Below are positions 13,538 to 33,850 of a DNA stretch of 34,896 nucleotides, piece after piece (the stretch's first letter is position 1; each line of letters opens with the position of its first letter). Below the pieces are notes generated by a model. It saw nothing but the letters and a program-made list of their open reading frames with translations. It was not told where the DNA came from and did not search any database. A program made the translations under genes and the position numbers. Source of the stretch: Candidatus Roizmanbacteria bacterium RIFCSPLOWO2_01_FULL_40_14 (GTDB lineage: Bacteria > Patescibacteriota > Microgenomatia > GCA-001788215 > 2-01-FULL-40-14). The stretch is taken from positions 29,176-64,071 of the forward strand of contig MGAO01000043.1 of NCBI GenBank assembly GCA_001788215.1, written 5' to 3'.

Positions 13538-14317
13538 TTATGTCAAAACAAGTAACCCACCGCGCGTTAAAGCGATGGTCTTCTCGAAACAAGAAGCAAT
13601 TGTACCATCTTTAGTTCGGATTGTCCAACCATCAGCCTCGTCTATATACACGTCTGGTTTGCCCATGACATATATTGCTTCAATGGCCAATGTCATGCCT
13701 ATTTTTAATTCTGGTGTTTTTGAAAGTGGCCTCATAAGTAGTCCGGGAACTTCAGGATCTTCATGTAATTTCTTCCCTACTCCATGGCCTACTAATTCTT
13801 CAACAACCCCATACCCTTCCGGTTCAATAGTATTCTGAATCGCTTGTGAAATATGACCAATGCGATTACCCAATTTAACTTGAGCAATTCCATTTTTTAA
13901 TGCTCTCTCTCCTGTTTTCAAAAACTTATTAATTTTATCATTTGGATCTTTGTCCGCCAGCTGGCGGATTGGATCTTCTACTCTAACCGTCCAACTCATA
14001 TCCGTATGAAATCCCTGATAGTACATACCGAGATCAACCGTAACAACATTGTCTTCTTTCAGAATTATTTCTTTATGAGGAATACCATGGACAACACAAT
14101 CGTTGATACAAATACAGCTTGCCCATCGATATCCTTTCACCCGCTTAAATGACGGCTCTCCACCTTCTTTTCTGATCAGATCATCGGCAAACTTATCAAT
14201 CTTAGCCGCCGAAATACCGGGTTTAACTTGTATAAGTGTTTCTGTAAGGACGCGCTTAAGCTTTTTTCCGCCTTCCTGCATAGTTGCAATTTCTTTTTCA
14301 GATTTTAGATGGATCAT
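13538..14317 (-). CDS. map: Methionine aminopeptidase type I
   Basis: VVHGIP, VDLG...GFHTD, GHGVG..LHEDP, LAIE. Confidence 0.96.
   Translation of the reverse strand: MIHLKSEKEIATMQEGGKKLKRVLTETLIQVKPGISAAKIDKFADDLIRKEGGEPSFKRVKGYRWASCICINDCVVHGIPHKEIILKEDNVVTVDLGMYYQGFHTDMSWTVRVEDPIRQLADKDPNDKINKFLKTGERALKNGIAQVKLGNRIGHISQAIQNTIEPEGYGVVEELVGHGVGKKLHEDPEVPGLLMRPLSKTPELKIGMTLAIEAIYVMGKPDVYIDEADGWTIRTKDGTIASCFEKTIALTRGGLLVLT
13942..13977. repeat. 16-bp perfect palindrome between 9-bp direct repeats, inside map
   Basis: TTGGATCTT-TG-TCCGCCAGCTGGCGGA-TTGGATCTT. Confidence 0.85.
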
Positions 14318-22268: not shown

Positions 22269-22841
22269 TTATTTACCTCCAATAACTTTTCGTGTTACAG
22301 TTGCTTTCTTCTGATACTGATTACTTTTCATCCGCTGTTTACTTTCCATTCCTATCTTTTCCCGATAACCTTTCTTTACTTCAACGATTTTCTTTTCACC
22401 TTTCTTAGGTTCTTCTTTTGGCGTGATTTTTTCAACTTTTAACCCGCCTGCAACGCTTTGCGTAGCAATGCGGGCAGGTTTTTCATTTTTAATTTTTACT
22501 TTGCTTTCCTTCATTTCATCTAAAATAACGGTAATATGACTCGTTTGTTTCTGATACTGATGGGCCGTACCGCGCGAAGCGGCGCGCCATCGTTTAAATC
22601 GCGGACCTTCATCTACCGTCAGTTGTTTGATATACAATCTATCTTTTGATAGTTTTGCATTATTTTCTGCATTGGCGATGCCACTTTCAATCGTTTTTTT
22701 GATAAAAAATGCTGCACGTTTTGGTAGACGTTCAAGCGTTATCAAAGCTCTCTCAAGCGGTAAATGCCGAACAGCAGATGCGACAAGCCGCGCTTTTCTT
22801 GGTGTTATACGAATATAGTTACTTTGTGATTTAATTTCCAT
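22269..22841 (-). CDS. rplV: 50S ribosomal protein L22 with ~80-aa C-terminal extension
   Basis: RITPRKARLVA, ANAENN, VDEGP, SHITV; extension after ILDE. Confidence 0.96.
   Translation of the reverse strand: MEIKSQSNYIRITPRKARLVASAVRHLPLERALITLERLPKRAAFFIKKTIESGIANAENNAKLSKDRLYIKQLTVDEGPRFKRWRAASRGTAHQYQKQTSHITVILDEMKESKVKIKNEKPARIATQSVAGGLKVEKITPKEEPKKGEKKIVEVKKGYREKIGMESKQRMKSNQYQKKATVTRKVIGGK
22441..22480. repeat. Palindromic element inserted in-frame in rplV
   Basis: AACCCGCCTGCA-ACGCTTTGCGTAGCAA-TGCGGGCAGGTT, encoding PARIATQSVAG. Confidence 0.85.
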
Positions 22842-22866
22842 AGTCACTCCGTTCCTGTGTGCTTCA

Positions 22867-23154
22867 TCACGTTTTCTCCAGTACCCGCTTTGTTACCTTT
22901 CCGTGTCCTCTAAACGTACGAGTCGGTGCAAATTCTCCCAGACGATAGCCAACCATATCTTCACTGATAAATACTTCAGTAAATACCCGGCCATTGTGAA
23001 TAGCAAACGTATGTCCGACAAATTCTGGAGCCACTTGACTGGCACGAGCCCATGTTTTGATTGGCATTTTTTTAGCAGATTCTTTTTGCTGTAAAACTTT
23101 TTTGAGCAATTTTGGATCTACGTATGGTCCTTTTTTACTGGATCGTGTTGACAT
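22867..23154 (-). CDS. rpsS: 30S ribosomal protein S19
   Basis: [30 protein letters not shown]. Confidence 0.98.
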
Positions 23155-23156
23155 AG

Positions 23157-23912
23157 TTATTTTCTCCTCTCAATAATTAATCGGTCGCTCGACTTTTTTC
23201 GTCGGGTTCTGACACCCATTGCTTTTTTACCCCAGGGCGTTTTAGGACTCGGCATACCAATACCGCTTCTTCCTTCTCCTCCACCGTGCGGATGAGAACC
23301 AGGATCTTGCGCAACACCCCGTACCGTTGGTCTTACTCCCATATGGCGCTTTGTTCCTGCTTTACCGATATTCCGATGTTTGCGTTCGGTATTTGAAAGT
23401 TGTCCAATAGTTGCATAACACTCTTTTCGTACCATACGAACTTCACCGGAAGGAAGTTTCATACGAACATATTCGCCCTCTTTTCCCATAATAGTTGCAT
23501 AGTTTCCGGCGCCGCGCGCCATCTGACCGCCTTTTCCCGGCGTCAATTCAATATTGTGAACTTGTGTTCCAATCGGCATATGCGATACGGGAAGTGCATT
23601 ACCAATGGTCATTTCTGCTTTTTCACCTGAAATAACAGACGCCCCTTCCTGCAATCCATCGGGAGCTAAAATATATCGTTTATCTCCATCCTCGTACACA
23701 ACGAGTGCAATATCAACGCCCCGATTGGGATCATATGCAATATGGTCAACTCGGGCAAGGATATCATGTTTACTTCGGTTAAAGTCAATAATACGATACA
23801 TTCGCTTGTGCCGTCCTCCTTTATGGCGCATAGAGACTTTTCCCGTCGCATCTCGCCCAGCTTGATAAGATAAATTTTTGTGTAATTTTCTCGGATAATT
23901 GTGCTTATTCAT
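23157..23912 (-). CDS. rplB: 50S ribosomal protein L2 (short N-terminus)
   Basis: [34 protein letters not shown]. Confidence 0.98.
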
Positions 23913-23914
23913 AG

Positions 23915-24217
23915 TTATTTCGTCTGCTCAGGTGTAATACTGAATGCATCAATCGTCTGATCCTTTGCAATTTTCACCAGCGCATATCGCCGATTAGCCA
24001 TCTGAGTTGCCCGTCTCATCCGGCCAACTCGTTTTTCTTTTCCGACACGATTTATTGTTTTAACCGATTTCACATTTACTGAAAAAAGTTTCTCAACAGC
24101 TTCTTTTATCTGATGCTTATTGGCTCCCTTCTCAACTTCAAACGTATACAGCTGATCGCGTACGCGATTGATTGATTTTTCGGTAATGACTGGTTTTACT
24201 AAAATAGTTTGGGTCAT
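23915..24217 (-). CDS. rplW: 50S ribosomal protein L23
   Basis: PVITEKS, YTF.V...ANK.QIK.AVE.LF.V. Confidence 0.96.
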
Positions 24218-24987
24218 GATTTTATGATCGTTTCTTGTAATACACTAATAGCATCTTTGCTGAAAATGAGTCGTTTCGTGTTTAACACGTCATAGGTATG
24301 TAATAGCCGTGCATCCTGCACCGTAAGATTTTCAATGTTGCGACCAGCTCGATAGAGCACGTCAATCTTTTTAGGCGTCGCGACGATCATTTTCTCTTGA
24401 ACTTTTCCGTGTTTTACGTGGCCGGTAATACTGTTTAATGCTTTGATAAATGCCTTTGTCTTTGCTTCCAACTTTTCAAATCCTTCAACCACGATAACAC
24501 GCTCATTTTTAAATTGAGACGTCAGTGCTGAACAAAGCGCCAATTGTTTCATCTTTCTGCTCATCGATTTCTCAAATGGACGAGGTCGGGGACCGTGTGC
24601 TTTTCCGCCGCCGACAAAAATTGAGGCATAGCGATCACCGTGCCGAGCACGACCGGTACCTTTCTGACGCCAGATTTTCCGGCGGCTCCCCGTTACTTCA
24701 CCACGTGTTTGCGCTATTGCGCCGCCCTGTCGTTGATTTATTTGATATACCCGAACTGCCTGCGCCATAAGGGATGTATTCACCGCAGCATCAAACAATT
24801 CTTTGGGCAATTCCATTGTCCCTTTTTTCTTCCCTGCAATATCAACGACGTCAACGGTAAGATTTGACGTTTTTGTCGCTGATTTTTGTTTCTGTATTTT
24901 CTTTGGTTCTTTGGATCCCTGCCCGCCATCGCTGCGTTTAGGCGCTGGCAGGCGGGTTTGGATCTTTGGATCTTTTATTTTTGCCAT
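24214..24987 (-). CDS. rplD: 50S ribosomal protein L4 with N-terminal extension
   Basis: TRGEV.G, QKGTGRARHG, GGG.AHGP.P. Confidence 0.97.
   Translation of the reverse strand: MAKIKDPKIQTRLPAPKRSDGGQGSKEPKKIQKQKSATKTSNLTVDVVDIAGKKKGTMELPKELFDAAVNTSLMAQAVRVYQINQRQGGAIAQTRGEVTGSRRKIWRQKGTGRARHGDRYASIFVGGGKAHGPRPRPFEKSMSRKMKQLALCSALTSQFKNERVIVVEGFEKLEAKTKAFIKALNSITGHVKHGKVQEKMIVATPKKIDVLYRAGRNIENLTVQDARLLHTYDVLNTKRLIFSKDAISVLQETIIKS
24910..24972. repeat. Palindromic element between TTTGGATC repeats, inside rplD
   Basis: TTTGGATC-[CCTGCCCGCCA..17 nt..TGGCAGGCGGG, 24918-24956]-TTTGGATC-TTTGGATC. Confidence 0.85.
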
Positions 24988-33800: not shown

Positions 33801-33850
33801 TCCCGCCTCAGGCGGGAATATTTGTATCGTTTCTCCCCCGCCATGGCGGG
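33801..33850. repeat. Two CCCGCC-n-GGCGGG mini-palindromes
   Basis: TCCCGCC-TCA-GGCGGGA (33801-33817) and CCCGCC-AT-GGCGGG (33837-33850). Confidence 0.75.

Follow-up and report, generated by a model that had tools for sequence, protein, structure and literature searches.

Rickettsia palindromic elements (RPEs), attributed to Ogata and colleagues in 2000, are reportedly palindromic repeats that lie in frame in housekeeping genes, give the encoded proteins extra peptide segments where these are tolerated and have no transposase of their own. They are said to be approximately 100-150 bp long and confined to Rickettsia. Double-hairpin elements of fungal mitochondria are another system to which the sequences described here are likened. 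The intragenic REPs tagged GTAG or CGTC are GC-rich imperfect palindromes of 20-40 nt that are sometimes genic, and the passages of the source drawn on here report that REP abundance is not tightly linked to tyrosine transposase genes (Di Nocera et al. 2013, PMC3733652). According to the passages used of a second source, small Ssn nucleases of the GIY-YIG type bind hairpin repeats and cut them as single-stranded DNA (ssDNA) (Chenal et al. 2025, PMC11893778). The stretch analysed here (the window) comprises 34,896 nucleotides of Candidatus Roizmanbacteria bacterium RIFCSPLOWO2_01_FULL_40_14 (GenBank assembly GCA_001788215.1, contig MGAO01000043.1, positions 29,176 to 64,071 of the forward strand). 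It contains two copies of a short GC-rich hairpin element, one in rplV (ribosomal protein L22) and one in rplD (L4). Both are probably copies of a small non-autonomous insertion element that acts at the DNA level, is filtered by selection and is translated through.

The two copies have opposite orientations, measure 36 and 39 nt, both multiples of three (3n), and lie where an earlier note made from the sequence of the window had placed them (Table 1). On the + strand, copy 1 reads CCCGCCTGC-A-ACGC-TTT-GCGT-AGCAAT-GCGGGCAGG. Its peptide occupies residues 124-135 of the 192 of L22, between NEK and LKV, and that of copy 2 residues 11-24 of the 257 of L4, between KIQ and SKE. The two-armed pattern was matched twice in the window and not once in 100 dinucleotide-preserving shuffles. 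The palindrome described in the earlier note has real inverted arms but is imperfect, the 9-nt arms containing one C.A mismatch and one T.G wobble. The consensus layout is CCCGCCTGC, a variable inner stem-loop, AGCRWT and GCGGGCAGG; the conserved ends form an imperfect inverted pair of 9-11 nt, with one mismatch and one wobble, and are constant across all copies, whereas the inner stem varies.

The minimum-energy fold of the 36-mer pairs CCCGC with GCGGG and TGC with GCA, and adds an inner 4-bp stem. Folded as single strands, both window copies were more stable than shuffles (z -1.7 to -3.4). Within the inner stem of the 36-mer, positions 11 and 21 vary together (A-T in eight, T-A in seven, G-C in one and T.T in one of 17 distinct sequences), and the 39- and 42-nt variants have a longer version of the same inner stem (e.g., TCAGC/GCTGA and TCCCGCA/TGCGGGA). 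In four metagenome runs, dozens of unrelated contigs shared the element alone and diverged exactly at 22442/22443, 22478/22479 and 24956. The unit thus spans CCCGCC to GGCAGG. The summed depth in run X7 was 3310 and 506 in two element bins vs approximately 11-90 in the neighbouring bins, and metagenome assemblies break within the element, where contigs terminate.

The genome assembly (853 kb in 48 contigs, approximately 40% G+C, 83% complete) contains 11 copies with exact ends. A profile search followed by inspection, along the lines that the earlier note had proposed, gave 24 curated loci, including one 72-nt copy nested in another (contig C37). The note's expectation of a dispersed family sitting in frame within housekeeping genes, as RPEs do, was borne out: 13 of the 24 loci lie within long open frames and 11 are non-coding. 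As read from translations, the host genes encode the ribosomal proteins S15, L4 and L22, the C-terminal part of a class-I aminoacyl-tRNA synthetase, read as ValRS (two copies), ArgRS, PheT, a G6PD-6PGD fusion, a family-2 glycosyltransferase and an O-antigen-ligase-like membrane protein. TrmD, PyrG and GyrB are further hosts, whose identities were confirmed against solved structures. The open reading frame (ORF) of the G6PD-6PGD fusion (C11:2462-4942, 826 aa) holds, in addition to its element copy, a second GC-hairpin-like peptide, HPRPDRGSQGDSRLRGNDN.

All nine copies that have canonical ends and lie in genes are of 3n length (36, 39, 42 or 72 nt), and in this genome a 38-nt subfamily (four to five copies) is confined to intergenic DNA. 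When copies of this genome were pooled with those fetched from other genomes, a 3n length was seen in 17 of 19 copies in long open frames vs 22 of 39 others (Fisher p 0.016). In the same pooled set, 14 of the 19 open-frame copies share one antisense frame, giving the small and hydrophilic peptide PAR[NI]A..AGG. An adaptation to stay open in all six frames was rejected, with a mean of 4.8 open frames vs 4.5 in shuffles; this excess is due to the G+C content, and freedom from stop codons is no greater than expected from it.

A recurring peptide could suggest that the similarity is a shared peptide motif, and chance in GC-rich islands or an assembly artefact would be related explanations. PKRSDGG does recur in L4, S15 and GyrB, and PARNAS.. 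in several proteins. However, both orientations, three reading frames and the 11 non-coding copies coexist in one genome, in agreement with the earlier claim that conservation is at the nucleic-acid level. The absence of matches in the shuffles speaks against chance, as does the recovery of the locus in 20 sequencing runs from 11 studies, with aquifer and soil samples, and of the element in many independent assemblies against an artefact. These explanations are considered extremely improbable.

Comparison with homologues showed that the element is an insertion into older sequence. Aligned with its best Protein Data Bank homologue, PyrG has 13 residues, exactly at kPARNASHSDAGG, that the homologue lacks; they lie between the synthetase half and the glutaminase half. 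E. coli GyrB likewise lacks 13 residues at AAPATPKRSDGGR. In the nearest relative (G001), identity of L22 is 53% across residues 3-191 and the end of the extension (KKGY..QYQKK..TRKVIGG) is shared, and L4 has an N-terminal extension of similar length without the element; the L4 of most relatives aligns only from approximately residue 25 onward. The element therefore sits in already existing tails. It adds 12-14 residues, and to this extent the earlier suggestion that it helps to build ribosomal-protein extensions stands, but the tails themselves predate it. The alignment of L4 and L22 that the earlier note had proposed as a way to find empty sites yielded these tails without the element; the available relatives are too distant for an empty site at the DNA level, and empty sites are thus readable at the protein level alone. 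There were no matches to the element in 109 ribosomal-operon loci of other organisms (462 kb). At the equivalent place in G001, approximately codons 108-135 of L22 (contig C133, locus L254) contain two other GC-rich hairpins, CCCTCGCCGCGTCAGACGCGGCTTCGGCGGGCAAG and CCCGCCTGACGGTGAGGCAGGG, and the L22 tail, judged from these sequences, looks like a hot spot for GC-hairpin inserts.

Interrupted tRNA genes gave comparators at the nucleotide level. Contig C32 has a tRNA-Val(cac)-like 5' part with the sequence GGCTAGA/element/GCGTTCG, and the intact gene 60 nt downstream reads GGCTAGAGCGTTCG. On contig C20, a tRNA-Glu-like part reads CATCGTC/element/TAGCGG, and its intact neighbour CATCGTCTAGCGG. 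A third, tRNA-Arg-like, part is broken after GGATAGA. These split points were read by eye; MAFFT gave one-sided gaps. Deleting C32:56562-56669 in silico gives a canonical 74-nt tRNA-Thr(cgt), and in the nested pair on C37 one copy lies between the inner stem and the AGCAAT of the other. No target duplication was found at the five sites with an uninterrupted comparator, where the extra DNA was exactly the element. Bias in the insertion target is only weak: among 57 copies, T stands at -3 in 29 and TTCG precedes five, and no strict target sequence of 4-5 nt was apparent. Insertion into the loops of pre-existing hairpins was rejected, as the junction fell in a predicted loop in 21 of 58 joined flanks vs 41% of random sites.

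Four hairpin copies in total lie in 5' partial tRNA-like sequences directly upstream of intact Glu-ctc, Val-tac, Arg-tct and Val-cac genes (C20:25884-26311 and C32:56345-56430; loci L276 and L277). Three are split at the same D-arm place, TAGA/GC, and one fragment has an additional, different hairpin in its D-loop. The sequence at C26:6254-6273 is a perfect palindrome of 20 nt, CCTGCCTGCCGGCAGGCAGG, that the paralogous stretch C10:19590-19618 lacks, with no target duplication; it is a second small insertion family in the genome. Three copies of a conserved non-coding unit of approximately 75 nt with the closing stem ACCCGCC..GGCGGGT (C38:1400-1600, C47:2780-2980 and C20:14340-14540; loci L273-L275) each bear the element in the loop GTTCGAA/GTAGAAC, and the unit matched no Rfam family.

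The family is widespread. Copies are carried by 39 of 61 genomes of the same class (0-31 each), with reversed-pattern controls near zero, at up to two end mismatches. Identical 36-mers were found in different families, and the 36-mer of copy 1 itself recurs unchanged in G018 and G048. When one genome per species was scanned, at least 124 loci were obtained; among the matches listed, 33 are clear family members, which by record title include Patescibacteria, Saccharibacteria, Verrucomicrobia, Lentisphaerae, Kiritimatiellia and Desulfobacteraceae metagenome-assembled genomes (MAGs). Whole-genome counts in five MAGs from outside the Candidate Phyla Radiation (CPR) were 31, 132, 81, 21 and 15, and copies there are also found in arrays and inside one another. 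Of 127 loci in predicted viral contigs, 23 are family members, with several per contig. As to strand bias relative to replication, the one single-contig relative with copies (G057) has approximately seven distinct ones, and four of the five orientable copies on one side of dnaA are co-oriented, too small a number to indicate a bias.

The same ends were also found around tRNA genes. End pairs 75-105 nt apart are present in 20 of 151 genomes of the class and in none of the controls, and a complete tRNA lies between the ends in all 12 of the long loci fetched. Deleting the insert restores an outer tRNA with the anticodon of the inner one in six of these (Thr-cgt in this genome, Thr-tgt, Gly-ccc, Leu-cag, and Ala-cgc twice); the flanks of the other six are, by eye, recognisable but truncated or further disrupted tRNA parts. 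The example in this genome (C32:56562-56669; locus L512, 1501-1608) is a complete tRNA-Thr(cgt) in the anticodon loop of a second tRNA-Thr(cgt); loci L504-L515 show the layout in related genomes. Inner and outer tRNAs are 60-78% identical, and the inner tRNA-Ala of one genome is 92% identical to the outer one of another. The conserved ends thus mark the limits of an inserted unit, which can hold either a short stem-loop or a gene between them. tRNA cassettes outside the CPR were rejected, since the long end-to-end matches in the five non-CPR MAGs were arrays or nested hairpins.

It is conceivable, though doubtful, that a mobile system spanning several phyla, with the conserved ends as its termini and a hairpin-specific ssDNA nuclease as its driver, exists in two forms, cargo-less hairpins that persist in essential genes as in-frame loops (L22 and L4 being examples) and tRNA-replacing cassettes. 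If this were true, a cargo cassette landing in a tRNA gene would bring a replacement of the same tRNA, and successive waves would replace host tRNA genes. Such a self-rescuing, gene-drive-like element of approximately 40-115 nt would be among the smallest mobile DNAs known.

Interruption of tRNA genes by the same ends at or near anticodon-loop positions, including 37/38, together with the stability of the hairpin, could also be consistent with removal at the RNA level. The element would then be excised like an intron or passed over by translational bypass, and the proteins would lack the extra residues. Excision would make a 3n length, stop-free reading and a preferred benign frame needless, yet all three are seen, and non-3n variants are never inside ORFs in this genome. 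Each interrupted tRNA holds a complete replacement tRNA, which suggests that splicing does not rescue the outer gene. The Rfam covariance models of ribozymes, introns and riboswitches gave no match to the element, the only matches being to tRNAs. Removal at the RNA level is therefore judged very unlikely.

The flanks of the copies show a further feature. Direct repeats of 7-16 nt flank 8 of the 24 copies in the genome (null 3%) and 6 of 39 elsewhere. Tandem periodicity of 7-8 nt placed 28% of the flanks above the 95th percentile of random sites (p 9e-5), with the null drawn from this genome alone. The rpsO gene for S15 (C6:11897-12349, locus L373) and positions 24890-24975 of the window have in common a block of approximately 83 nt, approximately 96% identical, which consists of the element and GATCCAAA-type 8-mers and occupies the same place in the N-terminal tails of S15 and L4. 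The unit common to rpsO and rplD thus exceeds the hairpin. GATC-containing 8-mers likewise flank copies in C37 and in G001. TrmD has 25 residues where the S. aureus protein has two, so that both repeat copies are extra. As the repeat-to-repeat distance is often not 3n, simple target duplication into an intact frame cannot explain the repeats; hairpin slippage, or gene-to-gene copying of the element with its flank, are possibilities. The window also contains GC-rich palindromes of other types at 1507-1547 (41 nt), 13953-13968 (16 nt) and 33801-33816 (16 nt).

Table 1. Positions in the window of the two element copies, their host genes and the adjoining repeats.
Feature	Position	Strand	Description
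Element copy 1	22443-22478	+	36 nt; antisense reading in rplV is PARIATQSVAGG
Element copy 2	24918-24956	-	39 nt; sense reading in rplD is TRLPAPKRSDGGQG
rplV (L22)	22269-22847	-	192 aa; C-terminal extension of approximately 80 aa containing copy 1
rplD (L4)	24214-24987	-	257 aa; N-terminal extension of approximately 45 aa containing copy 2
Flank TTTTTCAACTTTTAA	22428-22442		near-repeat of the other flank of copy 1; 7-nt exact direct repeat TTTTTCA
Flank TTTTTCATTTTTAA	22479-22492		partner of 22428-22442
Tandem 8-mers TTTGGTTC TTTGGATC	24902-24917		abut copy 2; repeat family D7
Tandem 8-mers TTTGGATC TTTGGATC	24957-24972		abut copy 2 on the opposite side

An enzyme acting on the element would do so in trans, and candidates were sought in the genome. 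Two paralogous 240-aa proteins (C25:3329-4057 and C29:3237-3959) share their HUH and YxxxNP motifs with RAYT/IS200 Y1 transposases. Their scores exceed the Pfam Y1_Tnp cut-off; against NCBIfam REP_Tyr_transpos they reach 44-53 bits, below the equivalog cut-off of 80. The earlier note had proposed looking for a gene of this type next to copies; the two genes exist, but none adjoins a copy, and no element copies are present on their contigs. Y1 homologues were found in 35 of the 61 relatives, with up to 19 matches. The genome also encodes four small GIY-YIG proteins of approximately 95-109 aa, the size of published Ssn nucleases (C9:20191-20415, C9:21796-21999, C26:3734-3955 and C48:24714-24923). 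Among the matches listed for other genomes are several element copies at a distance of 12-150 nt from a small GIY-YIG gene. A longer autonomous parent with the same ends was rejected, as there was no credible pair 75-4000 nt apart in the genome except for the 108-nt tRNA copy. No TnpB/Cas12f-type domain was found in the genome, which is incomplete as stated above.

Related genes and hairpins were noted during this analysis. In some Microgenomates genomes (G031, G017, G020), RAYT-like Y1 genes have multiplied to 10-19 matches, and some relatives' Y1 genes are flanked by different hairpins of their own, such as GGCGTCGCCTTGC..GGCGACGCC (loci L168 and L171). Hairpins of the ATTCCGGA type lie beside the small GIY-YIG gene C26:3734-3955, and a 30-nt family, CCCGCCTTCGCCAAGGCTACGGCGGGCAAG, is common in relatives.

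The reading of the two window sequences as copies of an insertion element would imply the following course. The element would spread as DNA and be inserted precisely, in either orientation and without target duplication, and in a gene-dense genome most insertions would hit genes. Insertions would survive if they are of 3n length, bring in no stop codon, encode a small and hydrophilic peptide and fall in a tail or a surface loop. A surviving insert would be transcribed and translated as 12-14 extra residues, which in L22 and L4 would lie inside pre-existing Lys-rich terminal tails. The distribution, nesting and precise insertion of the copies suggest that they arose by transposition or homing-like copying.

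A number of observations weigh against this account. The closest relatives are distant, with 50% identity for L4 in the nearest genome and at most 61% for L2 in a metagenome collection. No filled and empty alleles were seen side by side, in that no contig joint in four DNA runs skips either copy, and the comparison of two genomes of one genus (G005 and G040) gave no empty site, the intergenic stretch being too diverged to define one. The sequencing runs listed for the locus include no RNA run, which bears on translation of the insert. The site-specific 7-8-nt tandem repeats beside approximately one quarter of copies are unexplained by clean cut-and-paste.

The evidence on enzymes points both ways. 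In this genome, no listed copy is closer than 1.2 kb to any GIY-YIG or Y1 gene; for GIY-YIG genes, the sequence approximately 250-300 nt around each gene and the ORFs within 1.2 kb of non-coding copies were covered. In five other genomes, three copies lie within 1.5 kb of 30 GIY-YIG loci vs approximately 2.3 expected, and none was found near 18 Y1 loci of other genomes. In favour of a GIY-YIG enzyme, element count across the 61 genomes is more strongly correlated with GIY-YIG matches (Spearman 0.63) than with Y1 matches (0.38) or genome size (0.37). These values are uncorrected for phylogeny, and GIY-YIG count itself also rises with genome size (0.44). Three element-rich genomes have no Y1 match (G021 with 31 copies, G006 with 15 and G062 with 132). 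The last of these, which has the most copies and whose completeness is not established, has only one GIY-YIG match, of UvrC size, and none that is small. None of 58 copies with 10-nt flanks, on either strand, fits the published SRM pattern of the Ssn-bound repeats. Given this mixed cross-genome evidence, an Ssn-like nuclease is named as the leading candidate only. An Ssn-like single-domain GIY-YIG ssDNA nuclease is a tentative choice that falls appreciably short of an even chance, a RAYT-like HUH Y1 protein is unlikely, and the prospects are evenly balanced that the enzyme is something else or no longer present.

The hairpin could instead be primarily a functional host motif, kept by selection and tolerated in genes. 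It would be an ssDNA site for a conserved protein, such as an Ssn-type nuclease modulating natural transformation, or a structural signal in DNA or RNA. This alternative overlaps with the insertion of a mobile element, because to our knowledge the multiplication of the published NTS/SRM repeats is itself unexplained. Ends that are identical across phyla and an inner stem with compensatory changes are as expected for a hairpin recognised by a protein, and element copies increase with the number of GIY-YIG genes. In the parts of the source drawn on here, the hairpin recognised by published Ssn nucleases is present in hundreds of copies per genome (PMC11893778), and the N. elongata NTS oligonucleotide in its supplement contains CCCGCCTGCGCGGG, the same stem core. 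However, genomes range from 0 to 132 copies, with 22 of 61 relatives having none, and the copies occupy unrelated, non-orthologous sites, nest and disrupt tRNA genes. The misfit with the SRM pattern counts here too, and the genome already has a separate SRM-like family of 31 pattern matches, mostly TGTCATTCCCGC... (e.g., C19:8224-8284). A host motif is thus considered improbable, and insertion of a translated-through mobile element is preferred.

If this preferred reading is correct, a sequence of 36-42 nt remodels essential proteins of streamlined bacteria (three ribosomal proteins, three aminoacyl-tRNA synthetases, gyrase and CTP synthase) and would contribute to the unusual insertions and extensions for which CPR proteins are often noted. 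The near identity of the ends among MAGs of CPR, Verrucomicrobia, Lentisphaerae, Kiritimatiellia and Desulfobacteraceae would point to shared recognition machinery or frequent transfer. The multiplication of REP-like hairpins becomes testable with a few small proteins and oligonucleotides. In practical terms, metagenome assemblies break at the repeats, and both gene callers and tRNA finders can be misled by them.

The family consists of widespread hairpin insertions tolerated in frame and is apparently unpublished. No published description was found in literature searches by keyword and end motif; the supplement of Chenal et al. (2025) may hold related motifs. Like the small GC clusters of yeast mitochondria, as far as the passages drawn on describe them (Wu & Hao 2015, PMC4478555), the element is a small GC-rich palindrome without a known enzyme that also enters coding sequence, the clusters doing so in an AT-rich, gene-dense genome. 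Unlike the element, which is bacterial and crosses phyla, those clusters are organellar and eukaryotic and have an unrelated sequence. As in miniature inverted-repeat transposable elements (MITEs), the element is non-autonomous with terminal inverted repeats, here of 9-11 nt. It is, however, much shorter than typical MITEs. It has no fixed-length target duplication, flank repeats elsewhere varying from 7 to 16 nt, and no autonomous parent with its ends in this genome. The lack of target duplication fits single-strand transposition of the IS200/IS605 type; the target is only weakly biased.

The resemblance to NTS/SRM repeats includes a short hairpin, a stem of the CCCGC/GCGGG type, up to hundreds of copies and occurrence in many phyla, according to the passages drawn on (PMC11893778). 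The element differs in having no 5' HGTCWY tag and in not matching the SRM pattern given there, and none of its copies in this genome lies beside a GIY-YIG gene. Those passages do not describe genes occupied in frame or tRNA cargo, both of which the element shows. Like REPs, the element is a short GC-rich imperfect palindrome with many dispersed copies. Unlike them, it has no GTAG or CGTC end tag, its ends being CCCGCC and GGCAGG, and GTAG occurs only internally, in the subset whose inner stem ends in T. Nor are the RAYT-like genes of this genome flanked by the element, and more than half of its copies there are intragenic.

Like RPEs, the element lies in frame in conserved protein genes and is absent from the orthologues. 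It differs in its length of 36-42 nt, its presence in several phyla, its conserved end pair of 9-11 nt with a variable inner stem, and the ability of its ends to bracket a tRNA gene. With this length and these hosts, its sequence family cannot be one of RPE-1 to RPE-8, taking the size and host reportedly typical of RPEs. The family behaves close to RPEs and intragenic REPs and has the defining features of neither.

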